Shown here: positions 4,303-30,251 of the stretch, in pieces | Layout: each line of letters starts with the position of its first letter | How positions within the stretch are numbered: position 1 is the stretch's first letter | Virus record (IMG/VR): IMGVR_UViG_3300027796_000023 | Reading direction: 5' to 3' (one strand) | DNA: 36,765 bases | Source of the DNA: a virus | Notes under the pieces: generated by a model | The model's database searches: none | Seen by the model: the letters and a program-made list of their open reading frames with translations, nothing else | What the model was told of the DNA's origin: nothing | Program-made: the position numbers and the translations under genes

Positions 4303-4704
4303 ATGAAACAGGTAATCGAAGATGAAGCGGCGACGATCGAGCTCGATCGAATAATCGAGTTCTACGAGGTCGACCCGGAGGGAAAAGACTGGGAGGACAG
4401 CAAAAAACGCCTATTATCCGCGATCATGAAAGGGCGGATCACTCTCGACGAGGAGTCCGGAGTCGTTATCATGGAACTAGTGTCACCGATCAAACTGCAA
4501 AACGACGATATCGTCAAGTCGCTCGAGTTCAGGGAGCCGACAGCGGGAGACCTCAAGGTTCTCGACAAGTACAAGGAATCCGAGTCGATGGCGAAAACGA
4601 TACACCTCGCGAGCAAAATCACCAGTAAATCCATTGCAATAATCGAGAAAATGATCGGGCGCGATTTGTCGACCATGGGGGCGATAACGTCGCTTTTTTT
4701 CTGA
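4303..4704 (+). CDS. Tail assembly chaperone (P2 gpE / lambda gpG analogue, 133 aa)
   Basis: The ORF lies immediately upstream of the tape measure and has a strong SD (aaaggagaaaagg). It ends ...SLFF* on a T7C slippery run. Confidence 0.8.
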   Translation: MKQVIEDEAATIELDRIIEFYEVDPEGKDWEDSKKRLLSAIMKGRITLDEESGVVIMELVSPIKLQNDDIVKSLEFREPTAGDLKVLDKYKESESMAKTIHLASKITSKSIAIIEKMIGRDLSTMGAITSLFF

Positions 4705-4865
4705 TCCTGCCCGCACCGCTCGAGCGGACGCTCTGGGCGGTCGCGAACCGATTCGGGTTCGACGGGCATGAAATGAAGCTCGGACGCCTGGCGTTCTGGT
4801 ATCGCGGACATGAAGCAATATGCAAGGAAGAGGCCGCGGAGGTCGCTCGAGCATCCGGAGGGTAA
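4303..4865 (+). CDS. Tail assembly chaperone, -1 frameshift-extended isoform (about 187 aa; P2 E+E' / lambda gpGT analogue)
   Basis: After the slip at 4695-4701 the -1 frame reads LILPAPLERTLWAVANRFGFDGHEMKLGRLAFWYRGHEAICKEEAAEVARASGG*. The TAA at 4863-4865 lies 3 nt before the tape-measure ATG. Confidence 0.7.
4695..4701 (+). promoter_or_regulatory. -1 programmed ribosomal frameshift slippery heptamer T_TTT_TTC
   Basis: An X_XXY_YYZ heptamer in the zero frame lies directly before the TGA stop. The -1 frame stays open for 54 further codons up to 4865. Confidence 0.75.
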
Positions 4866-4868
4866 TAA

Positions 4869-6449
4869 ATGGCTAACACGTTCACCATAAAAACAGTTTT
4901 TCAAGCCGTCGACAAATTCACCGGAACGACGAACGCGATAAAGAAAAAAATTGACGAGATCGGCGGATCAGCAGATAAGGCGAAGGCATCGCTCGGCGAG
5001 TCGTTTGGAAAACTTGGTTCCGGGATAAAAAAAACCGCGTTAATTCTAACCGCCTCCGCTGCGATCGCCGCAGGCGTCGGGGCTCAATTTGTAAGCGCCG
5101 CGGCCGAAGTTCAACAGTATAAAACGACGCTCGTCACCATGCTGGGGAGCCAGGAAGCGGCGAACGCGCGATTCGAAGAAATGTCGAAATTCGCCGCCTC
5201 GACTCCGTTCGAAATGAAAGACGTCGTTCAGTTAGGAAATCAACTACAGGCGCTCGGTCGCTATAGTAAAGAAAATATGACGATTCTCGGAGACCTGGCG
5301 GCAGCCTCCGGAAAACCGATAGACCAGGCGACGCGCGCGTTCTCGAAACTCGCGAGCGGACAAAAGGGCGTTGCGGTCGATATGTTCCGAGACTTGCTAA
5401 TCTCGACGGACGACTGGGTCAAGGCAACGGGGAAGGGCGTTGCTAAATCCGGCGAGCTCATGGCGTCGACGGAGGAAATGCTCGCGGTCCTCCCTGCGAT
5501 TCTCAAGTCGAAGGGATTCTCGGGAATGATGGCGGAACAGTCTAAAACATTTAATGGGCGCGTTTCAAATATGAACGACGCACTTTTTCAGTTTAAGGCA
5601 GCCATGGGGCAAGCGATGCTAGGTCCGATCGGGAAAGTAGTCGAGCTCTTAACTCCGTTAATCCAGAAATTTACCGATTGGGCAAACGCGAATCAAGAAG
5701 TTATCGGGACGAAAGTCGAGTCGTTTGTCAATGGACTCATAGAAGGGATTCGAACGCTCGTTTCGGTGGTCGGCGGAATTATGAAAGTACTCGGGCCGTT
5801 TACGCCGCTTATAGTCGCGATAGTCGCAGCCATTGCCGCGTATAATGCCGTAATGGTTATATATGAAATAGTAACGACCGCCGCTGCGGTCGCGCAAATG
5901 ATACTAAATGGCGCAATGCTCCTAAATCCGGTCGGGCTCGTCGTCGCGGGAATCATTTTATTGATTGGCGTCATCGCGTTACTGGTAAAGAATTTCGATC
6001 ATGTAAAAGCCGCGATGCTTGCCGCTTGGGAAATTGTAAAGGGACTCGGACAGGCGTTCATGAAATATCTTTTATTGCCGGTCAATTTGGTTATGGAAGC
6101 GATTGGCGGACTGCTCCGTCTTTTGTCTAAGCTCCCGTTTGTGGGCGACAAGATCGCGCCGGCGGTCGACGCGCTCGACAATTTCCAGGCGAATATGAAT
6201 AAAACGCTCACCGGGACCGAAGGGGCGCTCGATTTTAAGGGAGTAGCAGAAAACGCAATGGGAAACGCATCCGCCGCAATGAGTGGCGGGGCGCCTATGT
6301 CGACACAAACGCAAACGATTAACCGAAATAACAACAGTACGGTTGACGTAAATTTCAACAATACGCCGCCAGGGACTCGCGTCGCAGCGACGGGACCGTC
6401 GGCGCCTGGCGTGACGCTTAATACCGGTTCAATGTTTGGGGGTCGCTAA
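4869..6449 (+). CDS. Tail tape measure protein (526 aa)
   Basis: The gene follows the chaperone/frameshift pair. It has an Ala/Gly-rich helical N-terminus and a central hydrophobic block (LIVAIVAAIAAYNAVMVIYEIV...). Confidence 0.85.
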   Translation: MANTFTIKTVFQAVDKFTGTTNAIKKKIDEIGGSADKAKASLGESFGKLGSGIKKTALILTASAAIAAGVGAQFVSAAAEVQQYKTTLVTMLGSQEAANARFEEMSKFAASTPFEMKDVVQLGNQLQALGRYSKENMTILGDLAAASGKPIDQATRAFSKLASGQKGVAVDMFRDLLISTDDWVKATGKGVAKSGELMASTEEMLAVLPAILKSKGFSGMMAEQSKTFNGRVSNMNDALFQFKAAMGQAMLGPIGKVVELLTPLIQKFTDWANANQEVIGTKVESFVNGLIEGIRTLVSVVGGIMKVLGPFTPLIVAIVAAIAAYNAVMVIYEIVTTAAAVAQMILNGAMLLNPVGLVVAGIILLIGVIALLVKNFDHVKAAMLAAWEIVKGLGQAFMKYLLLPVNLVMEAIGGLLRLLSKLPFVGDKIAPAVDALDNFQANMNKTLTGTEGALDFKGVAENAMGNASAAMSGGAPMSTQTQTINRNNNSTVDVNFNNTPPGTRVAATGPSAPGVTLNTGSMFGGR

Positions 6450-7681
6450 TGGCATATGATAATATTCGCGAGGCGAAATATATCGCTCCGTCGGGCGCGA
6501 CGTTCGTCCTACAATTTGACGAGGTCGAGCGATCGGGCGGGAAAAAATCGTCAGTTCATGAACTCCCGCAACAAAACGATCCGATCGTCCAGGACTTGGG
6601 AAACCAGGCGTCGAAATATCCGCTAAACATTTATTTTACGGGGGCGGACTGCTATACACTGGCCGACGCGCTATACGATGCACTATCAGAAATCGGTCCG
6701 GGAACGCTCGAGCATCCGACGTTTGGAAATCTAGAAGTCCTCGCGACAAATTGGAACGAATCCAGGAAGTTAGTCGACGGGCTCGGGCGCGTTGATTTTA
6801 AGATTGATTTTGTACGCGCTCCTAAACTCGATTCGCTTTCCGTATCGACTCCGACGTCAATCGATAGTACGATACTCGAAAAGGCACAAACGACCGTATC
6901 GGCGTCCGTTGCGAAGTCGGCGGGAAAATATGCTCCGGAAACGGCCGCAGAAACATCATGGATAAAAGAAAAAGTATCGGCGATCGTTTCGACATATAAA
7001 ACGACCTTCGAAGGAGTGACGTCATTCGCTAAAGAGGCACAAACCGAAATAAATAAAATAGTTCGGGAAGTCTCATCGACGATCGACACGCTCGTAACGA
7101 AGCCGCTCGAATTATATACCGAATGCGCAGCGATCGCGCAAATTCCTGCGCAGGTATCGACAAAAGTCCTCCGTAAAATCGAAGGCTATCGCGAGCAAAT
7201 TTTATTTATTGCCGGGCAGGTCGCCGAGACCTACACGGAGGCGCTAACGCTCGGAGAGTCACTTTTCTACGCACTGGCAGGAACAGCGGCGGCGACGGTC
7301 GAAGGGACGATTTCAAGTAGGACAGAAGCGATCACGGTCGCGAGTACGGTCGAGGAAGCGACGAACGCGGTCATACAAGCGATTGAAAAACTCGAGGAAA
7401 CGGTTCCGGAATATCGCGCCGATCCGGAAACTTTCTCTGCGCTCGTTTCGATCGCGATACTCGCGCGGGATAATCTGGTTGAAAAGGCTTACAGCCTGCG
7501 GGCGGAGCGCCGCTTAACACTTGCGACGGAACGGACACCGCTCGACCTTCTCGTCGAATTTTACGGAGACGGAATATCGGACCTCGACGCGGCGCTCGAC
7601 GAATTTGTCGAAATAAACGTCCTCGTCGGCGACGAGATAATTTTAATTCCCGCAGGTCGCGAGGTCGTTTACTATGCCTGA
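6449..7681 (+). CDS. Mu gp43 (gpN)-like DNA circularisation / baseplate-associated protein (410 aa)
   Basis: The N-terminus (MAYDNIREAKYIAPSGATFVLQFDEVERSGGKKSSVHELPQQNDPIVQDLG) is typical of the DNA_circ_N family. The gene is coupled to the tape measure by a TAATG overlap. Confidence 0.7.
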   Translation: MAYDNIREAKYIAPSGATFVLQFDEVERSGGKKSSVHELPQQNDPIVQDLGNQASKYPLNIYFTGADCYTLADALYDALSEIGPGTLEHPTFGNLEVLATNWNESRKLVDGLGRVDFKIDFVRAPKLDSLSVSTPTSIDSTILEKAQTTVSASVAKSAGKYAPETAAETSWIKEKVSAIVSTYKTTFEGVTSFAKEAQTEINKIVREVSSTIDTLVTKPLELYTECAAIAQIPAQVSTKVLRKIEGYREQILFIAGQVAETYTEALTLGESLFYALAGTAAATVEGTISSRTEAITVASTVEEATNAVIQAIEKLEETVPEYRADPETFSALVSIAILARDNLVEKAYSLRAERRLTLATERTPLDLLVEFYGDGISDLDAALDEFVEINVLVGDEIILIPAGREVVYYA

Positions 7682-11355: not shown

Positions 11356-12912
11356 ATGGATAGGACAAACGCATCCGGAAGCATCGACGGAGCATACGTC
11401 GACGATGATCCTGTAAATGAAATAACCGGAACGCTCCTCGTCGCTCATGATCGGAACGCAATTCAAGAGGAATTACTTGCCGTCATAGAGGCCGCGGGAA
11501 TTACTCCGAATGGAAATAATTGGGCGCAGATACTAGCCGCGCTCCGATCAAGCGCCGCGAACCTGGTCGACGCTAACAAACTGAACGGACAGCTCGCCGA
11601 ATTTTATCGCGACGCCGGGAATTTGAACGCTGGCACCGTACCAGAGGCGCGACTCCCGCTCGCAGCGATCGCGGCCGCGATAAACTATACCGCCGCCGAC
11701 GTACTCTTAAAACTATTGACCGTAGACGGCGCTGAATCGGGACTCGTTTCGGAAGATTCGACGAAACTAGGAGGAGTCGCCGCCGCGAATTTTATACACG
11801 GAAACGAGAACGGGGCAATTTTAGCAAATAGTGGATCGTTTTCATCTAATGCTACAAGGTCAGGATTTTATATATTTAACGGAATAACCGTTTCAGACTT
11901 GCCGGACGCAGAATTTTATTCCGGATATATAACAAAATATGATAATAATACCGGAAACGCGGAGATTGTAGCAACATCGGGGAAAAAATATGCGCGAAGT
12001 TTAGGCGGAGGAGTTTGGTCCTCATGGATTCTTATCTCCGACAATGGAGTCGCGCCTAATTCCGCAGATTCTAAGATGCTAAATTCTGCGGCGAAGGCTT
12101 TTAAGTTCCAATTATATAACGCAGGAAATACTTTATTAAAAAGAATTTGTATTTTGCCGAATGGAACAAATAGCACCGATTCGGCAAGAATAAACCTTTC
12201 ATTACACGACTGGACTTTTATGTACGGAACGGGTGAATTTGTATTTAAAAACAGAAATGGATTTAAATACATCGCGCATCATGATGGCTCTGTTTCTGTC
12301 AGTACTTGTGGTATTGCTTGCTATAATCGTTCAGACGGAGGAATTGACGTTTGCATATATGCACACGCCGGACAATTTATTGAAGCCTCCGTTTTGGTCG
12401 ACGGCGAAGATATTATTTTTTCGAATGGGGAGGACTTTGTTCCGTCTGGTAGTTTGTGCTTTGACTCTGCGGACACAACGACATATCCAATAAATAGAAA
12501 AACATGGAACTCGAATTCGCATCCGACGACGCTCACCGGATATGGCATAACCGACGCGCTAAAAGATTCGGTAATCGTTACGGGAACCGCACGAACGATT
12601 TATAATCAAGGTATCGTTTCATATACGCGACGAGAATTTATATCGTTCGTTCGTGGTTCGCTCAAGCTCGATTTCGTTCATGATAATTTAGCTGGTTTAA
12701 TAACTGTCACCTCGGCCGGTAAAACTGTATATCAATACAATCATCCCGACAATACCGCTATAAATATAACCGTCGACGTACCGGTTTATCATTCGCAGCC
12801 GGTTGTTTTGACCTGTTCCGCTGGAAATATAACGCGGTTTATGGTAAAAGACGATGGAACCTGTTCCGGTGCGTTATACGACGAGACGGTCGCTTTTCTG
12901 AATCTTGGTTAA
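11356..12912 (+). CDS. Tail fibre protein (518 aa), compositionally mosaic
   Basis: The gene follows the baseplate genes and carries the tail-fibre motif TLTGYGITDA (about 12520-12552). The N-terminal third is GC-rich and the middle (about 11815-12530) is AT-rich. Confidence 0.8.
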   Translation: MDRTNASGSIDGAYVDDDPVNEITGTLLVAHDRNAIQEELLAVIEAAGITPNGNNWAQILAALRSSAANLVDANKLNGQLAEFYRDAGNLNAGTVPEARLPLAAIAAAINYTAADVLLKLLTVDGAESGLVSEDSTKLGGVAAANFIHGNENGAILANSGSFSSNATRSGFYIFNGITVSDLPDAEFYSGYITKYDNNTGNAEIVATSGKKYARSLGGGVWSSWILISDNGVAPNSADSKMLNSAAKAFKFQLYNAGNTLLKRICILPNGTNSTDSARINLSLHDWTFMYGTGEFVFKNRNGFKYIAHHDGSVSVSTCGIACYNRSDGGIDVCIYAHAGQFIEASVLVDGEDIIFSNGEDFVPSGSLCFDSADTTTYPINRKTWNSNSHPTTLTGYGITDALKDSVIVTGTARTIYNQGIVSYTRREFISFVRGSLKLDFVHDNLAGLITVTSAGKTVYQYNHPDNTAINITVDVPVYHSQPVVLTCSAGNITRFMVKDDGTCSGALYDETVAFLNLG

Positions 12913-12928
12913 TGGCGGGAGTTATATA

Positions 12929-13225
12929 ATGAAATTCGGAATAATTATGTCGGCGATTTTACTCGCGATGATCGTCGCGCTTTACTTGGTCAATAAGTCG
13001 CGCGAGCGACAAAAGGAACGCGCCGACGAAGCCGAAGCGCGCGCGAAAACCGAACGCGCTGAACTCGCAAAACGCGAAAAATTCAACGCACAAATGGAGA
13101 CGATCGAAAATGAACGACAAGCGAAAACCGGGAAAGTTACTACTGGCCGTGCTCTTACTGATTTCGACAATTCTCTTGACGTCCTGTCAGATATTGCCGG
13201 AACCAAAAGTCGAGTATCGAAATAG
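12929..13225 (+). CDS. i-spanin (Rz-like, 98 aa)
   Basis: It has an N-terminal TM helix (FGIIMSAILLAMIVALYLV) followed by a charged coiled-coil (RERQKERADEAEARAKTERAELAKREK). The SD GGGAG lies 8 nt upstream. Confidence 0.7.
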   Translation: MKFGIIMSAILLAMIVALYLVNKSRERQKERADEAEARAKTERAELAKREKFNAQMETIENERQAKTGKVTTGRALTDFDNSLDVLSDIAGTKSRVSK

Positions 13226-15418: not shown

Positions 15419-18085
15419 ATGAAATCAATATTTGACGAGGCGCGGTCCGCCGTCTCCGCGTCGCTTATACAGCAAATGCTCGAAACAAATGGCGCATATT
15501 GGGACGCTGGCGAATACTGGACGCGGAATCCGCTACGCGCTGACGGAACCGTCGGATCGTTCTCGATCAGTGAAACTGGGGTTTGGCACGACTTCGCCGA
15601 CGATACCGGAGGAGACCTGATCGACCTGATCGTCGATATGCGAAAATGCTCAAAAAAAGAAGCCGCCGAGGAAATAGTCCGCATGGGTGGACATTACGTC
15701 GCAGAAGACACTCGACAAAGTCGCGAGACGTCGAAAAAGGAAAAACAGCGCGACAAGTTTCCGCCGCAAATTCCCGCTCCGGAGGCCGCGCTCAAGAGTC
15801 TAAACCAGGCAATGCGGGCAGACTGGGCGCGCGATCGATACGGCGAACCGCTCAAGGGGTGGACGTATCGCGACGCCGACGCTCGCGTCGTATTTTGCGT
15901 CGTCCGGTATGAAAAGAAAAAACCTGACGGAACTATCGCGAAGGACGTCGTTCCGTTCTATTATGGTATTGACGAACGCTGGCACAACGGGAGCCCGCTC
16001 GACACTGGCCGACCGCTATTCAAGCTCGACCAGGTCTCCCGCGCTGATCGTTCGGTTCCGGTTCTCGTCGTCGAGGGTGAAAAATGCGCGTCCGTCGAGG
16101 TTCCCGGATATCTCGTCGTCACCTGGTCGCAGGGGACAGCGTCGGTTCTAAAAACCGACTGGTCTCCGCTCGAGGGTCGCGAAATTATAATTTGGCCCGA
16201 CGCCGATCATCAATACGACAAGGCCGGTAAACTTATTCCATGGCATGAACAGCCAGGCATGAAGGCCGCGCTTACGATCGCAAAACGATTACCAGGGGCG
16301 CGAATTCTCGACGTTCAGAGTAAAGCCGCGCAAAAAAACGGCTGGGATATTGCCGACGCCGTTTCCGACGGAGTCGATCCCGTTGCATTTATTGCCGACA
16401 CGCTGCCGCAGGTTGCCGGGGAAACAGGACGATCGGACGACGCGCTCCCGTTCGTAGTTCTCGGGCATGATACCGCAAGCCATTATTTTATGAGACGCGA
16501 TTCCCGCGTCATTTTCGCAGTAGGTCGCGGATCGTTCAACGCGATTAAGGCGCTCGAGATCGCTCCGCTTTCATACTGGGCGATCGACTTCTCCTCGAAA
16601 ACTGACGGAATCCGCGCTGTCGATATTTATGATTTTTTGATTAACCTATCGGCGGACGCTGGATCGTTCGATCATACAAAAGTAAGGGGCGCCGGAGTGT
16701 GGCGTGATAAAGACGGAATAGTTCTTAATGACGGGCAGCGCTTAATTATGCCTGACGGCACGGTTCGCGCATATGACGAACACCGGTCGGAATTTGTGTA
16801 TATAAAATCATCGGTAAAGTTTGGGGCAATGGCAGGACCGGAGGCGACAGACGAGGACGGAGCACAGCTCGAGGAGCTATTCAAGGCGCAATCTTGGACC
16901 GATCCCGCGATGGCTACGCTGGCTATGGGCTGGGCGCTGATAGCTCCGTTCGGTGGTATGCTAAAATGGAGGCCGCATATTTGGCTAACTGGACGAAAGG
17001 GGTCTGGTAAATCGTATATGCTCGAAAACCTGATCGCGCCGCTCTGCGGGCCGTTTGCTCATCGCGGATCAGGAAAAGACACGGAGGCCGGAATTCGCCG
17101 TTCGTTGAACATGGACGCGCGGCCGGTAATCCTTGACGAAATGGAGCCGAAATCCGCGAAGGCGCGCGAAAAAATCGGGAGCCTGCTCGAGCTCGCAAGA
17201 AACGCCTCGAGCGACGGTTCCGGCGTTATAACGATCGGAGGCGGAGTCGATGGCGGAGCCGTTACGTTCGTTATTCGATCGTGTTTCGCGTTCGCGTCCG
17301 TACAAGTTCCAGACGAGGACGCCGCCGTCGCGTCACGTATTATACGAATGGAACTACGCGCAGAGACCGACCAGGCCGCTAAATTCCGACGCTGCGCGGA
17401 GCTTTACGCCGAATGTATGCAGGACCCTAGTCGGTACACTCGCCGAATGTATCGGGCCTTGCCGCGGATACTTTCCGACGTCGAGTTTATACGATCGGCA
17501 TATCTCGGTATATTTGGAGAACAGCGCAGAGTCGACCAGGTTGCGCCGCTATTCGCCGCAGCATGGGCCGCGCAGTCGTCGTCAACGATACGCGACTCGG
17601 ACGCCGGACGCGAATGGCTCTCGGGATGGCTCGATCGCCTGGTCGCGTCCTCCGGAGAATCCGTCGAGGACGAGGACGCGGTCGTCCGTCATTTAATCGC
17701 CGCGCAAGTAAGAAACGACGACGGGAAAACGCGAACCGTAGCGGAGTGGATGAACGGGGTAATCTTGAACGGCGAGGAGGGCGCCGAGGCGAACCTGCTC
17801 TCGCGCAATGGTATCCGGCTTATGGACTACGAAGGAAAGCGCGTCGTCGCGATCGCGGCCGATAATCAACACGTTCGGAAAATTCTAACGGGGACAGCTT
17901 ACGAATCGGGATACGGCGCACAGCTCCGGCGAAATAAACTATGCGTCAAGGATTCGCATACCGTCCGTTTCGCCTGCGGTTGCCTGCGGGCCTGTCTGAT
18001 CGATTGGACAGGGTTCAAAAAACAATATATCGGCGAGACCGTCATCGCACAGCCTGCGCTCGCGGACGACACGATTCCGTTCTAA
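15419..18085 (+). CDS. Bifunctional DNA primase / replicative helicase (Toprim + P-loop, 888 aa)
   Basis: The N-terminus carries GSFSISETGVWHDFADDTGGDLIDLI. The Toprim motif is VLVVEGEKCA...IIIWPDAD and Walker A is LTGRKGSGKS. Confidence 0.8.
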   Translation: MKSIFDEARSAVSASLIQQMLETNGAYWDAGEYWTRNPLRADGTVGSFSISETGVWHDFADDTGGDLIDLIVDMRKCSKKEAAEEIVRMGGHYVAEDTRQSRETSKKEKQRDKFPPQIPAPEAALKSLNQAMRADWARDRYGEPLKGWTYRDADARVVFCVVRYEKKKPDGTIAKDVVPFYYGIDERWHNGSPLDTGRPLFKLDQVSRADRSVPVLVVEGEKCASVEVPGYLVVTWSQGTASVLKTDWSPLEGREIIIWPDADHQYDKAGKLIPWHEQPGMKAALTIAKRLPGARILDVQSKAAQKNGWDIADAVSDGVDPVAFIADTLPQVAGETGRSDDALPFVVLGHDTASHYFMRRDSRVIFAVGRGSFNAIKALEIAPLSYWAIDFSSKTDGIRAVDIYDFLINLSADAGSFDHTKVRGAGVWRDKDGIVLNDGQRLIMPDGTVRAYDEHRSEFVYIKSSVKFGAMAGPEATDEDGAQLEELFKAQSWTDPAMATLAMGWALIAPFGGMLKWRPHIWLTGRKGSGKSYMLENLIAPLCGPFAHRGSGKDTEAGIRRSLNMDARPVILDEMEPKSAKAREKIGSLLELARNASSDGSGVITIGGGVDGGAVTFVIRSCFAFASVQVPDEDAAVASRIIRMELRAETDQAAKFRRCAELYAECMQDPSRYTRRMYRALPRILSDVEFIRSAYLGIFGEQRRVDQVAPLFAAAWAAQSSSTIRDSDAGREWLSGWLDRLVASSGESVEDEDAVVRHLIAAQVRNDDGKTRTVAEWMNGVILNGEEGAEANLLSRNGIRLMDYEGKRVVAIAADNQHVRKILTGTAYESGYGAQLRRNKLCVKDSHTVRFACGCLRACLIDWTGFKKQYIGETVIAQPALADDTIPF

Positions 18086-25060: not shown

Positions 25061-25659
25061 TAACGCTCCCGCGCGCTCTCGATCCTGACGCCTATTATTC
25101 ACAAACGAACAACGTCGTCGAGACAATCCTCGCGAAATGCAAGGCAGACCGGAAACTCGAAACCTGCGGTCCGACAGCCGCTACGATCATCGTCGACGCG
25201 CTCGGGAAGCTCCTCCCGATCGTCGCTCCTGGCGGGTGGAAACCACAGCCGGAGGACGTACTCGCCGCATGGTTTAATGATCCGCGAAATTATGACGCCA
25301 TGCGGCGCGCTCGCGACGGGATCGATCCGGCGTCGATTATGGGGAACGAGGTGCCGCAATGGTATCCGCCTGCGCTGGCGGCCGTTTTCGGGGTCCGCTC
25401 GACGTTCGCCTGGGGATTTTCGTTCGACCTGGTCCGCGAGGAGATAGAACGAGGGCTCGGAGTCCTCGCGACGATAAAGAATCCGGGACATTATATCGCG
25501 ATTGTCGGTGTCGACATTGATCGCCGGGAACTATTGTACCATGATCCATGGCCGGGCGATCCATGGCCGGGACGATATAAAGGATTTGGCGGGCAATGCC
25601 GTAGACTTTACGAGCTCGAGCTCGTAAATATACAGCCGTACCGGGTCGAAATAGGATAA
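25054..25659 (+). CDS. Putative papain-like cysteine peptidase (C39-like fold, 201 aa)
   Basis: The candidate Cys is in ETCGPTAATIIVDA and the candidate His in NPGHYIAIVGVD, followed by YHDPW. It is the last backbone-composition gene before the island. Confidence 0.45.
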   Translation: MLITLPRALDPDAYYSQTNNVVETILAKCKADRKLETCGPTAATIIVDALGKLLPIVAPGGWKPQPEDVLAAWFNDPRNYDAMRRARDGIDPASIMGNEVPQWYPPALAAVFGVRSTFAWGFSFDLVREEIERGLGVLATIKNPGHYIAIVGVDIDRRELLYHDPWPGDPWPGRYKGFGGQCRRLYELELVNIQPYRVEIG

Positions 25660-25670
25660 TAGGGGTTTAT

Positions 25671-25721
25671 ACTGAACATTGCATAATGGATTTATGCTGT
25701 TCAGTCTAATTTATGTTAGGC
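25671..25721 (+). repeat. Hairpin plus GTTAGGC core-site-like heptamer at the left edge of the low-GC island
   Basis: ACTGAACA (25671-25678) pairs with TGTTCAGT (25698-25705). An inner GCATAA/TTATGC stem and a TT bulge are present. GTTAGGC (GTTRRRY) lies at 25715-25721. Confidence 0.4.
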
Positions 25722-25751
25722 CGACGCCTTCGGCGCCAATAAGGAGAAAAA

Positions 25752-27941
25752 ATGAATATCGATGATAGAAGCCATTTAATAATTCCAATTGAAAGTATAA
25801 AAAAACAGGAATATGAGAAATCTGGTTTTGGTGAAGTTTTTAATAGACAAAATATTCCTGAACATAGTCAGAAGCTGAAAAGAAATTTTTCTGCTATTAC
25901 TTCTCGATTACAGCAAAGTAAAGATTTTGAATATATTGACACCTTAACAGTTTCAATTGTTACTCCTAAAGAATGGGATGCAAAAAAAGAAAAGGGACAT
26001 CTCAATGACCTTGGATTCACAATACTGGATTATAGTCGGAAATATCCAAATATCGTGACCGTCTCCATTCCTAAAAACAAATGGCCTGAAGTAGAAAAGA
26101 AAATTAGTCTATATGCAGAAAAAGGTGGGGTCGGAAAAACAAACTTACAGGCAATCAATGGCTTTATTCCTCGATTAGCAAGTGATTCACTTAATATTAC
26201 TACAGATGAAAGTGATAAATTAATAGATGTGAATATTACTTTTTTTAGTATACTTACTAAAAAAGAAGTAATAAATATAAGTGAACACTTGATTACTGAA
26301 CTTAAAAAAAATAATAGGTCTGTTAAGGTTATCCAATTATCAGATGATGATGTTATTGTTTCTTGTTCAGCATCGATTAATGAATTAAAAGGTATTGTAA
26401 AAGACTATATATCTGTAAAATCAATTGTGAATGATGATATTGTATTTATTGAGAAAGCATCAATCCGGACTAATTCTCATAAAACTGTTTTGGTTTCGAG
26501 GCCATTAACAAATCAAATCATTGCTGTCATTGATGATGGTATTTCTCCGCGTGAGGATTTAGCACCTCTAGTTACAGAGCGATTGTCTCCACAGGTTGCA
26601 AATGCAGTTACTGTTCCAGCAATACATGGAACGTATGTTGCAAGTAGATGCGTATTCGGAGATCTAGACCTTGATTCATTAGGTTCTGAAGTCGAACCTT
26701 GCTGTTGGCTTGATGATATTCCCGTTTTCGGTATAGATAGTTCAGGTAATAAATTAAGTCCAAGAGAATCAGATTTAATAAATGCAATTGATGCTTTTGT
26801 GAGCAAAAACTATAAAACAGTTAAGATTTACAATTTATCATTAGGATTTGGCGCCCCACTGATTTATCAAAAGTTTTCAGAGACCGCAAAGCGTTTGGAC
26901 CTGTTAAGTAAAAAATATGACGTTTTATTTGTTATTGCATCTGGAAATAATAATTCTTTATTAGGCCTCTTCCCTGAAGATCATTTCAAAAATCCATATG
27001 CAAGCATATCATCACCTTCTGAATCATTAACTTGTTTATCTGTTGGCTCAATTGCAAAAAAAGAATCAGCAATTTCAATGTCAAAGTATAATGAAATATC
27101 TCCTTTCTCAAAAATCGGACCTGGACTATTCGGTAGTATTAAACCAGATCTTGTTGCGCATGGCGGGAATCTAGTAAATGGATATAAACCTGATGCTGAT
27201 ATCTCAACGTGTGGATTTTCTGTAGCTAATGGATTAATTGAAAATGATATTGGTACGAGCTTTTCGGCCCCAATCGTCTCAAATATTGCTGCTCAATTAT
27301 TTGACTACTATCCAATGTATGGATCAAACATGATACGGGCATTGCTTATCCATGGTGCAGAGGAACGCATTTTTCCACAAAAACTGAATATTGAATCTCA
27401 TCTAGGTTGTGGCTATGGTGAACCAGATTTGCAAAAATGTTTGCAAAGCGATAACTTTTCTTGTGTGTTTCTAACTGAAGGAGAGCTGGATACTAGTAAT
27501 TATGATCTTGTGCCATTTTATATTCCTAAAATACTTGCAGATGGAAAACAGTCACTACGTATAAAAATAACAATAACGTTTAATCCAGAAGTAAATAAAA
27601 ATAATGATGAAGAGTATTCATGTTCAAGAATATCAAGTAACTTACAACGGCTTAAAGATAATTGTCTTACAAAAAAAAATCCTGAAGAAATAAATCTATC
27701 AGCACCATATAGCACAGTGATTAGGTATAGTTGCTCAATGAAACGCAATATTGAGCCCGGAGAATGGGCAGTAAAATTACGTTTATACTCACGTAATGTT
27801 GATCAAGCAATCTATAAACAGAAATATGCTTTGGTTATTGAGATACGCGATGAACTTAGTAAAATAGATTTGCGAGAACAAGTTATCAACGAAACAGGTG
27901 AAATGTATATCAAAAAGCTGAAAGAAAGAAAAATGGCCTAA
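25752..27941 (+). CDS. Subtilisin-like (S8) serine peptidase with unknown about 250-aa N-terminal and about 170-aa C-terminal regions; no signal peptide (729 aa)
   Basis: The catalytic triad is in D-H-S order: IAVIDDGIS (about 26520), HGTYVAS (about 26625) and GTSFSAPIV (about 27255). The SD is AAGGAG. GC is very low. Confidence 0.85.
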   Translation: MNIDDRSHLIIPIESIKKQEYEKSGFGEVFNRQNIPEHSQKLKRNFSAITSRLQQSKDFEYIDTLTVSIVTPKEWDAKKEKGHLNDLGFTILDYSRKYPNIVTVSIPKNKWPEVEKKISLYAEKGGVGKTNLQAINGFIPRLASDSLNITTDESDKLIDVNITFFSILTKKEVINISEHLITELKKNNRSVKVIQLSDDDVIVSCSASINELKGIVKDYISVKSIVNDDIVFIEKASIRTNSHKTVLVSRPLTNQIIAVIDDGISPREDLAPLVTERLSPQVANAVTVPAIHGTYVASRCVFGDLDLDSLGSEVEPCCWLDDIPVFGIDSSGNKLSPRESDLINAIDAFVSKNYKTVKIYNLSLGFGAPLIYQKFSETAKRLDLLSKKYDVLFVIASGNNNSLLGLFPEDHFKNPYASISSPSESLTCLSVGSIAKKESAISMSKYNEISPFSKIGPGLFGSIKPDLVAHGGNLVNGYKPDADISTCGFSVANGLIENDIGTSFSAPIVSNIAAQLFDYYPMYGSNMIRALLIHGAEERIFPQKLNIESHLGCGYGEPDLQKCLQSDNFSCVFLTEGELDTSNYDLVPFYIPKILADGKQSLRIKITITFNPEVNKNNDEEYSCSRISSNLQRLKDNCLTKKNPEEINLSAPYSTVIRYSCSMKRNIEPGEWAVKLRLYSRNVDQAIYKQKYALVIEIRDELSKIDLREQVINETGEMYIKKLKERKMA

Positions 27942-28048
27942 CAACTGCTTCAACCTGACTCGGCTATGTCACGATTCTTGCTAGTCGTCGCTACGCTCCT
28001 CGGCAAGAATCGCGCCATTACGCCTCGCAGGTTAAGCAAATGTTATAC
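27936..28048 (+). repeat. attC-like site 1 (113 bp)
   Basis: R''-like GCCTAAC contains the protease TAA, and R'-like GTTATAC lies at 28042-28048. The arms pair TGCTT[C]AACCTG[A]C with GCAGGTTAAGCA. The central stem is CGATTCTTGC/GCAAGAATCG. Confidence 0.5.
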
Positions 28049-28059
28049 GGACGGCAAAA

Positions 28060-28077
28060 GGCATAACAAGTTATGCC
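28060..28077. repeat. 18-bp perfect palindrome GGCATAACAAGTTATGCC
   Basis: It lies 12 nt after attC-like site 1 and 22 nt before the next ORF. A near-identical copy is at 28433-28450. Confidence 0.8.
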
Positions 28078-28099
28078 TACAAGCCGCAAAGGAGAAAAG

Positions 28100-28366
28100 A
28101 TGAATATATTCGAGTTTGCGGACATTATCGATAAAAGCATTGTTATTACTCGGTACGCAAATCAAGACGGACGATTCTCTGCATCGTTTGATTACTGCGA
28201 AACAAAACAAGGTGCATGCCTTTGCGGCGAATATGGAAACGGAAAAACTCCGCAAGAAGCATTAAACAACTATAAAAACAAGATAATCGGGAAGACTCTT
28301 GTTTTTAATGCAATGAGCGATGATTATCGGCAAGAATACGTCGCTCCGAAAATGGAAGACGTATAA
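28100..28366 (+). CDS. Cassette ORF 2, hypothetical (88 aa)
   Basis: The SD AAGGAG lies 6 nt upstream. Translation begins MNIFEFADIIDKSIVITRYANQDGRF. The ORF-track start at 28073 lies inside the palindrome. Confidence 0.55.
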   Translation: MNIFEFADIIDKSIVITRYANQDGRFSASFDYCETKQGACLCGEYGNGKTPQEALNNYKNKIIGKTLVFNAMSDDYRQEYVAPKMEDV

Positions 28367-28420
28367 CAACGAGTTCGACCTGACAACTTAGTAAAGTTGC
28401 AGGTCAACTCAATGTTGGAT
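28361..28420 (+). repeat. attC-like site 2 (60 bp)
   Basis: GTATAAC contains the ORF stop. The arms pair GAGTT[C]GACCTG[A]CAACTT, loop agta, AAGTTGCAGGTCAACTC. R' is GTTGGAT, a perfect GTTRRRY, at 28414-28420. Confidence 0.55.
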
Positions 28421-28432
28421 GGATTCTTTAGC

Positions 28433-28450
28433 GGTATAACAAGTTATACC
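28433..28450. repeat. 18-bp perfect palindrome GGTATAACAAGTTATACC
   Basis: It lies 12 nt after attC-like site 2 and 27 nt before the next ORF. 16 of 18 nt match 28060-28077. Confidence 0.8.
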
Positions 28451-28477
28451 GACACGAACTAAACCGGAGGAAGTAAT

Positions 28478-28633
28478 ATGCGAAAGAAGCCTATTGATGC
28501 CAATGAATACGATTTCGATATGTTTGAAAATTGGTTAGATGAAAACGGCGTTGGAGAACTGTTTGACGATTGGTCGCAATGGTGGGAATGTTGGAAAACC
28601 GCCTATCATTGGGGACAAGAAAATGGCATCTAA
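28478..28633 (+). CDS. Cassette ORF 3, hypothetical acidic Trp-rich peptide (51 aa)
   Basis: The SD is GGAGG. Translation is MRKKPIDANEYDFDMFENWLDENGVGELFDDWSQWWECWKTAYHWGQENGI. Confidence 0.45.
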   Translation: MRKKPIDANEYDFDMFENWLDENGVGELFDDWSQWWECWKTAYHWGQENGI

Positions 28634-28660
28634 CAACTGATTCCACCTGACTCAATGCAG
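28628..28660 (+). repeat. Truncated attC-like half-site (R''/L'' arm only)
   Basis: ATCTAAC is a perfect RYYYAAC and contains the ORF stop. It is followed by AACTGATTCCACCTGACTC, so TAACAACTGATTCCACCTGACTC matches attC-like site 1 at 21 of 23 nt. No complementary 3' arm was found downstream. Confidence 0.45.
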
Positions 28661-28686
28661 AAGGCCGTCGTTTATGCGACGTCCTT
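28661..28686. terminator. Hairpin between the island and the minus-strand regulator (possible bidirectional terminator)
   Basis: AAGGCCGTCG / CGACGTCCTT forms a 10-bp stem with one mismatch and a 6-nt loop. No clear U-run follows on either strand. Confidence 0.3.
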
Positions 28687-28690
28687 TCTA

Positions 28691-28900
28691 TTAAAAAAAC
28701 TGTTCTACTTTCTCAATAAGTCCGTCGCGCGCGAGTTTTTCTCGGACCGCCTCGCGGATATACTCGCACCGATTACACGGAATAATATCTTTCCATGTAT
28801 CCGGAACACGAATCGGAATAACGTACTTTTTTCCATAAACCGTTGGTCGGCCTGCTCCCTTACGCACTCCGCCATGATCGGATAATCGTTTTTTTTCCAT
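28691..28900 (-). CDS. Ribbon-helix-helix (CopG/MetJ-like) regulator, the only minus-strand gene (69 aa)
   Basis: The N-terminus carries GGVRKGAGRP. The RHH-like part is KKYVIPIRVPDTWKDII...CEYIREAVREKLARDG. The gene is divergent from the operator-rich region. Confidence 0.6.
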   Translation of the reverse strand: MEKKRLSDHGGVRKGAGRPTVYGKKYVIPIRVPDTWKDIIPCNRCEYIREAVREKLARDGLIEKVEQFF

Positions 28901-28992
28901 GTTTCATACCTATTTTGTCGGGAGCTGATCCCAACATTCCCGGATTATTCTTGAAATAAACATACACCAACCATGTAACATAATCAATTAGT

Positions 28993-29086
28993 TTATACAA
29001 CAATCAAGTTTTGCAAAACCGACAAACTTGATTTATGTTATACAACAATCAAGTGGTAGTTTTTATGAAACTTGATTATTGTATAA
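28993..29086. promoter_or_regulatory. Operator array: four copies of a 17-bp site TTATACAACAATCAAGT in alternating orientation
   Basis: The + copies at 28993-29009 and 29038-29054 are identical. The - copies are at 29026-29042 (diverged outside the AATCAAGT half) and 29070-29086 (1 mismatch). They form two large palindromes. Confidence 0.6.
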
Positions 29087-29110
29087 AAAGAATATCACTG
29101 ATAGCTATTC

Positions 29111-29416
29111 TGTTGCGCTGGAAAAATATGCGCAACAACAGCGCAACAGAACACGACACACGAACACGAATAGCTAATTCCTTATTATATATATATTTCT
29201 TTTAAATAATATATATAAAAAAGTAGGCCTGTTGCGCTGTTGCGCTTGTTGCGCAGAATTCAGTCCTCACGCGGAGTAAAAAAAATTGATTGCAATATAA
29301 TAATCAAACTATGTATATGGTGAAAGTAAGCGCAACAAGCGCAACAGCGTTACATCGTTATCCTGTAAGGAATTAGGGTGCAACAGTAGCGCAACAAGGC
29401 GCAACAAGGCGCAACA
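29111..29416. repeat. Iteron field: 11 perfect + 1 degenerate GCGCAACA 8-mers in oriented clusters around an AT-rich palindrome
   Basis: The - copies start at 29111, 29230, 29238 and 29247. The + copies start at 29130, 29141, 29330, 29339, (29378), 29389, 29399 and 29409. The AT-only palindromic stretch is 29181-29222. An ATAGCTATTC/GAATAGCTA inverted repeat lies at 29101 and 29168. Confidence 0.85.
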
Positions 29417-29541
29417 GACCAGCACACAAAGCGACGTAAATCTATACACTGTATGAAATTAAGGTACTGTCTAGCCGATAAAATCGCTCACGGGTACTGC
29501 AAGGCGCCGAGAATACCTACTTTCTCCATTTTCGGGGTCAG

Positions 29542-29570
29542 TTTACAATTTTACAAATAAGGGATAAAAT
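29542..29570 (+). promoter_or_regulatory. Candidate promoter (TTTACA-17 nt-TAAAAT) abutting the terS start
   Basis: The -10 ends 6 nt before the terS ATG (29577), and no SD precedes terS. Confidence 0.35.
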
Positions 29571-29576
29571 ATATAA

Positions 29577-30251
29577 ATGATTGTAAACCTCACGACCTTC
29601 GCTGACCTGGCCGGAGTCGGAAAGCCTTGCGTAACTTTGTCAGTACAACGGGGAAAGCTCGTCACGAACTCCGCCGGGTTTATTGACACGACCGATCCGA
29701 TAAACTCCGCATACCTGCAAAAGCGAAAAAATAAGCTCGAGGGCAAAAAAACACCAAATGATAAAAAAGCGCCGGAGCAGCGAATGGCGACGAAGGACAA
29801 GCCGTGCAAAACGAAACCGTTAAAAAAGACAGCGACTCCGAAACCTGCAAAAAAGGCGACGACGAAGCTCGAGCACCTGGACGGCGTCGAAATGTCGATA
29901 CCGGACACAGACCTCGACGATGACGGAGAAAAGATCGACGAACCGCTCGATCAGCTCGACAAGCTCGCGGCCGACGTCCGCTTGAAAAATGCGCAGGCTA
30001 AACGGCACGAATTGAAATTCGAACAGGATAAAGGAAACGTCGTCAAGGTCGAGATAGTCGAGCGCATGGCGTCGAAAATAAACAACGAAATAAAAACGAG
30101 ACTGCAAGACTTACCGCGGCGAGTTACTCCGCGGATTATGGCCATGGCTCGATCAGTGTCCGATGATAAAGAAGTACAGCTTGCGCTCGAGCGTGAAATA
30201 GACGACAGCCTCGAGGCGATATCCGTCGCGCTGGGGGCTTCTCTTGTCTGA
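29577..30251 (+). CDS. terS: Terminase small subunit, lambda Nu1-like (224 aa)
   Basis: The N-terminal wHTH (MIVNLTTFADLAGVGKPCVTLSVQRGKL) is comparable to Nu1 (MEVNKKQLADIFGASIRTIQNW). The C-terminus is NAQAKRHELKFEQDKGNVVKVEIVERMASKI. It is followed by a gpA-type TerL. Confidence 0.75.
   Translation: MIVNLTTFADLAGVGKPCVTLSVQRGKLVTNSAGFIDTTDPINSAYLQKRKNKLEGKKTPNDKKAPEQRMATKDKPCKTKPLKKTATPKPAKKATTKLEHLDGVEMSIPDTDLDDDGEKIDEPLDQLDKLAADVRLKNAQAKRHELKFEQDKGNVVKVEIVERMASKINNEIKTRLQDLPRRVTPRIMAMARSVSDDKEVQLALEREIDDSLEAISVALGASLV

Follow-up and report, generated by a model that had tools for sequence, protein, structure and literature searches.

Evidence for an Integrase-Less Integron Platform in the Genome of a Tailed Phage

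Introduction

How does a phage that encodes no integron integrase come to carry a row of genes, each of which ends in what looks like an integron recombination site? This question is raised by the IMG/VR virus record IMGVR_UViG_3300027796_000023, a stretch of 36,765 nucleotides (nt) that we analyzed as a whole and call here the window. A first-pass annotation, made from the letters alone, had described in it integron attC-like sites behind three open reading frames (ORFs), and a gene-cassette array without an integrase inside a phage genome. We find that positions 25665-28660 are best explained as an integrase-less integron platform on a tailed phage of ~36.7 kb, composed of an attI-like site and three gene cassettes with their attC sites. 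We are close to certain that the sites and cassettes of the window are genuine attC sites and integron cassettes; the full statement, in which the platform on the phage is joined by an integron integrase (IntI) that acts on the phage DNA, we consider likely, at a clearly lower level of confidence. The annotation was mistaken in taking such an array for something not described in phages. Qi et al. (Front Microbiol 2023, PMC9892861) screened 10,705 phage genomes and reported 17 clusters of attC sites lacking integron integrases (CALINs), one of which contains an attC identical to site 2 of the window. The present array is therefore a well-supported further example of a phage CALIN, such arrays having been first reported in phages in 2023, and its attI-like module, its short-attC cassette pool and its structured cassette leaders are parts that go beyond the descriptions that we found in the literature. 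The components of the array are as follows, with a stroke in a motif (as in G/TT) marking the crossover, and with RBS for ribosome-binding site and aa for amino acids:

25665-25721, plus strand: attI-like site, with two direct-repeat boxes, an inverted L box, a spacer and an R box
25716-28042, plus strand: cassette 1, with a leader hairpin, an RBS, the ORF 25752-27941 (729 aa) and most of attC site 1
27936-28048, plus strand: attC site 1, 113 nt, of the long chromosomal type, with R'' GCCTAAC and R' G/TTATAC
28043-28414, plus strand: cassette 2, with a structured leader, an RBS and the ORF 28100-28366 (88 aa; 97 aa from a longer start at 28073)
28361-28420, plus strand: attC site 2, 60 nt, of the short type, with R'' GTATAAC and R' G/TTGGAT
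28415-28660, plus strand: cassette 3, with a structured leader, the ORF 28478-28633 (51 aa) and attC half-site 3
28628 to about 28660, plus strand: attC half-site 3, consisting of the R''-L'' arm and the beginning of the loop only, with R'' ATCTAAC at 28628-28634

Anatomy of the attC Sites

The three ORFs end exactly where the annotation had placed their ends, inside heptamers that begin at 27936, 28361 and 28628: the TAA stop codon of the 729-aa ORF lies in GCCTAAC (27936-27942), that of the 88/97-aa ORF in GTATAAC (28361-28367) and that of the 51-aa ORF in ATCTAAC (28628-28634). The sequence likewise bears out that sites 1 and 2 are palindromes of 113 and 60 nt that finish in GTTATAC and GTTGGAT, and the ends of both have the RYYYAAC/GTTRRRY form, with a single deviation from RYYY in the R'' of site 2 (GTATAAC). 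Folding of both bottom strands with DNA parameters produced, in each case, an AAC/GTT-paired R box that a short unpaired spacer separates from an L stem, in which one G and one T bulge out at a spacing of 6 intervening nt, that is, the very extrahelical bases and unpaired spacer that had been predicted. The fold of site 1 has an energy of -25.1 kcal/mol (z -4.6) and that of site 2 of -16.0 kcal/mol (z -7.6), and for neither site did any of 200 shuffles fold as well. In site 2 and in attC_aadA2 of a class-1 integron, both of them 60 nt long, the bulged T and G occupy the same bottom-strand positions, 38 and 45. Furthermore, the 5'-arm motif TAACAACNNNTTCNACCTGAC is present three times in the window, and not one of 100 shuffles yielded any match to it with 2 mismatches permitted.

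The annotation had also proposed an attC covariance model as a check. We built and calibrated such a model from 10 attCs unrelated to the window family, with only the R- and L-box pairs annotated, its members being six class-1 plasmid attCs, attC_aadA7, two PH101 sites and one P12002L site (Qi et al. supplement); seven class-1 plasmid attCs had been collected (aac(6')-29a, blaVIM-2, arr-3, aac(6')-Ib, aadB, aadA2 and one further), of which six were used. A search of both strands of the entire window, run with filters off, gave as its two best matches site 1 (27936-28048, plus strand, 31.8 bits, E = 9.5e-6) and site 2 (28361-28420, plus strand, 18.9 bits, E = 0.018), both covered end to end, with no other match in the window at E < 0.1. 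The class 1 attCs aadA2, aadB and aadA7 resemble site 2 in their length of 60 nt and in the succession of RYYYAAC, spacer, L'' with an extra C and an extra A on the top strand, loop, L' and GTTRRRY, with bulges at identical positions, but they belong to another integrase lineage and their sequence identity to site 2 is limited to the boxes.

Site 3 is of a different kind. A 5'-arm profile matches it at 28629-28653 (E = 6.7e-6), its 3' arm (L'/R') was not found, and the covariance model finds no complete site there, so that it is a decayed half-site and not a two-armed attC. The annotation had seen in it a 5' arm only and an array truncated at the junction with backbone DNA; the lone arm stands, with two positions that differ from site 1, but the junction is not of the IntI type, the break lying in the loop, which abuts a backbone terminator.

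Between R'' and the GTT of R', both included, the sequence of site 2 is that of the oligonucleotide TJE1_attC2, which represents an attC of Tetrasphaera phage TJE1. In the suicide conjugation assays of Qi et al. (PMC9892861), IntI1 was able to recombine five out of six phage attCs with attI1, and TJE1_attC2 was among those tested and positive. One of the two complete window sites has in this way already received experimental support, and this identity is the indirect ground on which site 2 may be taken as a substrate of an integron integrase.

The attC Family on Chromosomes and in Viruses

An arm-motif scan returned 106 stretches from IMG/VR (L001-L106) and at least 120 from a one-genome-per-species set (L107-L226). 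The genome matches listed come mostly from Treponema, Treponemataceae and other spirochaete metagenome-assembled genomes (MAGs), and on the Treponemataceae chromosome OY762953.2 family matches extend over ~150 kb. In at least seven genome loci, a family attC is accompanied, at no more than 8 kb, by a homologue of IntI with 43-52% identity to IntI1 across all or most of its length, the IntI1 query being 100% identical to the annotated intI1 of thousands of plasmids, and at the five spirochaete MAG loci that were checked these homologues score 408-457 bits on the NCBIfam model TIGR02249, "integron integrase" (cutoff 265). The chromosomal intI points toward the array, the direction of intI transcription already described for the sedentary chromosomal integrons of Treponema (Wu et al. 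2013, PMC3607928). OY762953.2 (L156) and L208 contain attCs that match site 1 at 100% identity, and at least eight more are 98-99% identical to it. The annotation had made its reading depend on similar sites in integron arrays, and these do exist, in a family that lies beside TIGR02249 integrases. The window shares with the Treponema and Treponemataceae integrons the attC family, a GC leader hairpin after R' and a similar attI core, AGTCTAATTnATG/TTAG, but it differs from them in lacking intI, in having three cassettes only and in being a phage replicon. Two of its three attCs are, in addition, of the short form, which is rare on chromosomes among the matches listed.

In viruses, the family takes mainly this short form. 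Among two-armed motif-bearing sites, 89 of the 92 viral ones are shorter than 70 nt, whereas 77 of 93 from genomes, among the matches listed, measure at least 90 nt, and the window carries both length types. This split suggests a phage-borne pool of miniaturized cassettes. Three viral loci, phage TJE1 being one, contain sites that are 100% identical to site 2, and the viral contigs with family sites are mostly unrelated to the window phage, several of them carrying portal, terminase or tail-fibre genes. About 30 viral half-sites resemble site 3 and are often fused directly to an RBS, suggesting that hairpin sites decay once they are fixed. In this manner, the window phage ties a chromosomal integron lineage to a cassette pool common to unrelated phages, including the isolated phage TJE1.

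Phage TJE1 was also the only match of the window among phage GenBank records (megablast). Its CALIN is, like that of the window, an integrase-less and unidirectional phage array with the same attC family, and blastn aligns it at 100% identity with 28355-28416 (the attC) and at 95% with 28039-28102 (the leader). The cassette between these parts in TJE1 encodes a methyltransferase and not the 88-aa ORF, the backbone and cargo of the two phages are unrelated, and the window adds a long chromosomal-type attC and an IetS-like protease.

The attI-Like Left Boundary

There is no universal consensus for attI. At the left edge of the island, the annotation had noted a hairpin plus GTTAGGC at 25715; this coordinate was right (25715-25721), but the edge is more than that, namely an attI-like site that is common to viral contigs and similar to spirochaete junctions. 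Its parts are:

25665-25678, plus strand: direct-repeat box 1, GTTTATAC-TGAACA
25690-25703, plus strand: direct-repeat box 2, ATTTATGC-TGTTCA
25704-25710, plus strand: inverted L box GTCTAAT, followed by the spacer TTAT
25715-25721, plus strand: R box G/TTAGGC, with the predicted crossover between 25715 and 25716

The hairpin of this edge folds with -12.4 kcal/mol (z -5.7). A near-identical arrangement precedes the first cassette of viral contig L071, and motif searches found the same layout at the array starts of L024, L035, L036, L039, L042, L081, L103 and L264. A profile made from nine other viral sites matches the window at 25689-25720 with E = 8.8e-9, and its remaining matches (E of 0.038 or above) all fall within 25664-25721, on either strand. 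In at least nine viral contigs, the sequence to the left of G/TT is conserved and the right side consists of unrelated cassettes, with the switch at the same nucleotide. On chromosomes, the core AGTCTAATTnATG/TTAG is located between intI and the first cassette of loci L120 and L130, where the sequence reads ..TTTATAAGTCTAATTAATG/TTAGAA and ..GTTAAGTCTAGTTAATG/TTAGGT, respectively, and L130 has GTTTATACTGACCA repeats upstream of this core. By these sequence comparisons, the left edge of the array is a putative attI-like site that resembles the intI-proximal junctions of spirochaete integrons. The left boundary of TJE1 has the same layout with different bases, GTTAGAC-CGATCG-GTCCAAC-CATG/TTGGAT, and was read by Qi et al. 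as a terminator with GTTRRRY motifs, while we read it as attI-like.

Turnover of cassettes at such a boundary is apparent in short contigs. The 215 nt of left flank are 98.6% identical between L268 and L269/L273 up to G/TTAGATGGATT, after which there follows a cassette of ~930 nt in L268 and of ~215 nt in L269/L273, and then 97.7% identity resumes. Judging from this alignment, we consider it a clean replacement of a single cassette at the attI-proximal position. A metagenome scan also recovered contigs L266 and L267, whose backbone has no detected protein in common with the window phage, and which contain a 70-nt region homologous to the window attI-like site, preceded by a perfect TTGACA-N17-TATAAT promoter.

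Cassettes can also be inserted at non-canonical attG or secondary sites (Loot et al. 2024, in the form in which PMC12901181 cites it). As far as that citation goes, such insertions are like the window in that the cassettes lie outside an integron platform and are inserted at G/TT, but they differ in that the target in the window is a conserved attI-like module with repeats and not an arbitrary GNT, and that a consensus promoter precedes this module in other contigs.

Some further observations concern the same region. Consensus or near-consensus sigma-70 promoters stand before the attI-like site in L266 (240-335), L071 and L271, L266 having the form of a Pc-attI module without intI; the window copy, which directly follows the stop codon of the peptidase gene, lacks a promoter of this kind. 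The left hairpin was also considered as a degenerate attC, which was ruled out by its having no covariance-model match and no AAC box. An exact 27-mer of the window attI-like site had no match in metagenome contigs, and therefore no variants of the window phage with other cassettes were recovered.

Organization of the Cassettes and Their Leaders

All three cassettes run in the direction of phage transcription and have the same general layout, from TTRRRY through a leader hairpin, an RBS and an ORF with its stop inside R'' to the attC. The six nucleotides after each crossover are TTAGGC (25716), TTATAC (28043) and TTGGAT (28415), and the 5' end of each cassette complements the R'' of its own cassette (GCCTAAC 7/7, GTATAAC 7/7 and ATCTAAC 6/7), whereas it fits the physically neighboring R'' less well (5/7 and 4/7). 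This is as expected for cassettes that were once circular and were opened at G/TT, and this circular-cassette signature identifies the three units as integron gene cassettes.

A CALIN is defined by at least two close attC sites with intI absent nearby, and here two complete attCs lie 313 nt apart, with no tyrosine recombinase in the 36.7-kb window. The array is not a complete integron, in which intI adjoins attI and the cassettes: tblastn with IntI1 gave no match in the window, and no Phage_integrase or tyrosine recombinase match was obtained among the window ORFs scanned. In a promoter scan, the window had no more promoter-like sites than its shuffled versions, and none that would pass convincingly for a cassette promoter. 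The central claim of the annotation, a cassette array without an integrase in a phage genome, is thereby upheld, with real attCs that bound promoterless single-gene cassettes in a bona fide phage. The GC content of the island is 0.30-0.42 (0.30-0.38 in cassette 1) vs. ~0.55 in the backbone, no Rfam family matches in 25400-29700, and no tRNAs were found.

The leader of cassette 1 is a short GC hairpin, GACGCCTTCGGCGCC, at 25723-25737, and small GC leader hairpins of this type are typical of many Treponemataceae chromosomal cassettes. Short-attC cassettes have a different, conserved leader directly after R', which consists of GGAY and a two-tier hairpin whose apex is often RYYYAAC-AA-GTTRRRY, followed by the RBS. 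In the window, the leader of cassette 2 occupies 28049-28090 (apex GCATAAC-AA-GTTATGC) and that of cassette 3 occupies 28421-28462 (apex GTATAAC-AA-GTTATAC), and the attC covariance model scores these two leaders as "R-box only" matches. Compensatory changes affect six of the six inner-stem pairs in an alignment of 36 leaders (loci L002-L167); the short-attC leader has no Rfam match. Candidate roles for it are those of an mRNA insulator or stabilizer, or of an accessory recombination structure.

Origin of the Array

We suggest that a host-encoded integron integrase of the spirochaete/Treponema type would act in trans during infection, fold the bottom strand of a cassette attC, and recombine this strand at G/TT, its partner being either another attC or the attI-like site of the phage. 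Cassettes would in this way be inserted into the phage DNA or excised from it. A chromosomal array of the Treponemataceae type would be the source of cassette 1, and a pool with miniaturized attCs (~45-65 nt), confined almost entirely to viral contigs, that of cassettes 2 and 3. The last attC would later have lost its 3' arm, which would have fixed the right end of the array. We infer recombination on phage DNA from the exact G/TT junctions and from the cassette turnover at equivalent sites, the turnover being seen in other contigs and not in the window phage itself. The proposal is also favored by the related phage L228, in which this locus holds other cassettes.

Several points weigh against this proposal. 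The integrase is absent from the phage itself, and the wet-lab evidence concerns only a site identical to site 2, recombined by the non-cognate integrase IntI1. The likeness between the window and chromosomal attI sites is short (12/14 nt at the anchored position, plus a repeated box), and a profile made from two chromosomal sequences has its sole window match at the attI-like site, with a weak E of 0.36. No cassette polymorphism of the window phage was seen across four samples. On the right, the array breaks off inside an attC loop and not at a junction of the IntI type. A purely spirochaete origin sits uneasily with the actinobacterial host of TJE1, and the relatives of the large terminase (TerL) with a named source, only a Sedimentisphaerales and a Spirochaetaceae MAG, give no host assignment.

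The main rival explanation, which we judge unlikely but worth weighing in full, is that the whole block of attI end and cassettes was captured passively from another phage or from a host array, through recombination that was illegitimate or relied on short homology, so that IntI never acts and the sites are decaying passengers. The phage encodes RecT and a YqaJ-like exonuclease, which makes such a capture plausible, and exchange could make use of the homology offered by the identical arms of 20-25 nt and leaders, which surround one ORF in the window and another in TJE1. Site 3, cut off inside its loop, speaks in the same sense, as do the comparable half-sites of other viral contigs and the inverted, degenerate array of L228; indeed, the truncated site 3 needs some short-homology-type event under any reading. 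Passive capture does not account, however, for a left junction placed exactly at the G/TT of a conserved attI-like core, for the cassette switch at one and the same nucleotide over at least nine contigs, for the clean exchange of one cassette between L268 and L269, or for sites 1 and 2 being wholly intact.

An assembly artefact, either a chimera in which repeated attCs joined the phage to a host integron array or a prophage with adjoining host DNA, is very improbable. It could be suspected from two contigs of two samples that break at 27987-27995, inside the palindrome of site 1, but these overlap in the loop of site 1, which fits a circular assembly of ~36.7 kb, and the contigs of the window phage all measure ~36.6-36.8 kb. 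The array was recovered in at least four samples, the left junction (peptidase to IetS) and the right junction (cassette 3 to the gene of a ribbon-helix-helix (RHH)-like protein to that of the small terminase, TerS) were each recovered in at least three assemblies from several samples and two pipelines, and phage genes flank the island on both sides. The source samples are JGI 3300004151 and 3300004154, together with SRR10466901 and SRR10466941. The same junctions in independent assemblies, together with the overlapping breaks, make a chimera or a prophage flank unlikely. As a separate observation, the site 1 hairpin evidently breaks assemblies, and many IMG/VR matches also lie within a few hundred bases of contig ends, so that attC-type sites may be under-reported there.

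Least probable of all, and in our opinion practically dismissed, is that the palindromes are ordinary intergenic terminators or stem-loops of the phage that merely resemble attC, since, although they sit behind ORFs and attCs can be weak terminators (Qi et al., PMC9892861), no T-tract follows sites 1 and 2, their bulge geometry is that of attC_aadA2, an independent covariance model matches both, they have identical counterparts in chromosomal integrons and in a validated attC, and the related phages, in which the annotation had looked to conserved terminators as the finding that would overturn its reading, have no such sites at other intergenic positions.

As regards the integron platform itself, we tentatively extend the proposal, with some inclination to doubt it in this wide form, to many phages of anaerobic and wastewater communities. 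These phages would keep an integrase-less platform made of an optional consensus promoter, an attI-like site and cassettes, and would draw on a phage-specific pool of cassettes with attCs of 45-65 nt and covarying two-tier leaders, with host IntI acting in trans to swap genes between phages and between phage and chromosome. If this is so, phages would be integron "hitchers" and vectors of cassettes across hosts. If the attI-like site is functional and the short-attC cassettes circulate, phages would become regular users and vectors of the integron system, and defence- or toxin-like genes, such as that of the orphan IetS-like protease, could pass between bacterial chromosomes and viruses by site-specific recombination.

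Cargo of the Cassettes

The product of cassette 1 is an S8 subtilase with intact DDG, HGT and GTSxxAP catalytic motifs (Pfam PF00082, 1.1e-31), which matches the PADLOC profile IetS PDLC02197 over residues 104-714 (3.2e-79) and also PHROG 3964. IetS is the protease/toxin partner of the IetA ATPase (PMC5006074). The window protein is like its counterpart in the IetAS/SgiAT module in that it matches IetS profiles nearly over its full length and keeps the S8 catalytic motifs, but no IetA accompanies it: no IetA ATPase was matched among the window proteins scanned, nor beside a 54% identical homologue in L243, and cassette 1 is therefore not a complete Iet system. From these profile matches, we assign to cassette 1 a predicted orphan IetS-like subtilase, which could have a role in superinfection exclusion or counter-defence. 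The L243 homologue is itself a single cassette in a long-attC array, near other defence-like genes.

The 88-aa protein of cassette 2 has no family match, and the 51-aa product of cassette 3 has no match. Homologues of the 88-aa protein are 43-89% identical to it, and three of them were traced to other phage genomes, where only degenerate 3' tails remain. In L257 (4100-4130) and L258 (5260-5290), tails resembling R''-L'' (for example, GTATAGCAACTGATTCAACAC) lie behind such homologues, suggesting that these are former cassettes that have decayed in place.

The Phage and the Surroundings of the Island

The window is a complete phage of ~36.7 kb, in which all substantial genes lie on the plus strand and are of phage type. 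Its structural genes encode a Mu-like gpT head protein, a tape measure protein, a Mu gpP/J/gp45/46/48 baseplate, a tail chaperone and an SLT lysin; its replication and recombination genes encode a helicase, a YqaJ-like exonuclease, RecT and SSB; and its packaging genes encode a lambda Nu1-like small terminase, a gpA large terminase, a lambda-type portal and a ClpP-type protease. It is a tailed phage with a Mu-type head and baseplate and a lambda-type terminase. The identity of its attCs suggests that its host could be a member of the Treponemataceae.

The island occupies an accessory-gene slot between the gene of a C39-like peptidase, the last upstream backbone gene, and the minus-strand RHH-like gene with the terminase module. 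On the right, it is followed by:

28666-28691, no strand assigned: terminator-like hairpin (28666-28681) with a T-rich tail, which closes the array and after which the backbone resumes
28691-28900, minus strand: RHH-like gene (69 aa), a backbone gene convergent to the array and the right bound of the island

The loop of site 3 runs into this terminator-like hairpin, and the junction of cassette 3 with the backbone is identical in three independent assemblies. The 69-aa protein has no Pfam match, and its RHH assignment comes from the sequence pattern alone; RHH-like homologues occupy the equivalent position in the related phage L228/L248. The RHH gene was also considered as an inverted cassette, which was rejected for the window because no attC lies behind it in its own orientation; the L228 homologue does carry a half-site.

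Relatives of TerS were not found in IMG/VR. Thirteen relatives of TerL were found, the closest being L228/L248 (TerL 78% identical); only L228 spans the island locus, and the contigs of the other relatives stop just upstream of TerS. At this same locus, from the C39-like peptidase to TerS, L228/L248 contains a different island (4630-7000), whose genes lie on the minus strand and which includes two RHH-like genes and, in inverted orientation, two degenerate attC sites of the family. Its TerS and TerL genes are, moreover, separated by an N6/N4 methyltransferase gene, which the window lacks.

Between the RHH-like gene and the small terminase gene of the window, directly upstream of the latter, there is an AT-rich non-coding stretch (28900-29576, GC ~0.38-0.42) with inverted repeats of 20 nt, and an analogous AT-rich repeat region exists in L228; it is probably a cos or a packaging/regulatory region. 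A second patch of low GC (12001-13000, 0.40-0.44) covers the 3' part of a 518-aa ORF (11356-12912) that has no Pfam match and is located just downstream of the baseplate genes, and it may be a horizontally exchanged receptor-binding domain. Lastly, an 888-aa ORF of the replication module (15419-18085), with no Pfam match, has weak similarity to a primase/helicase-like ORF of L036.

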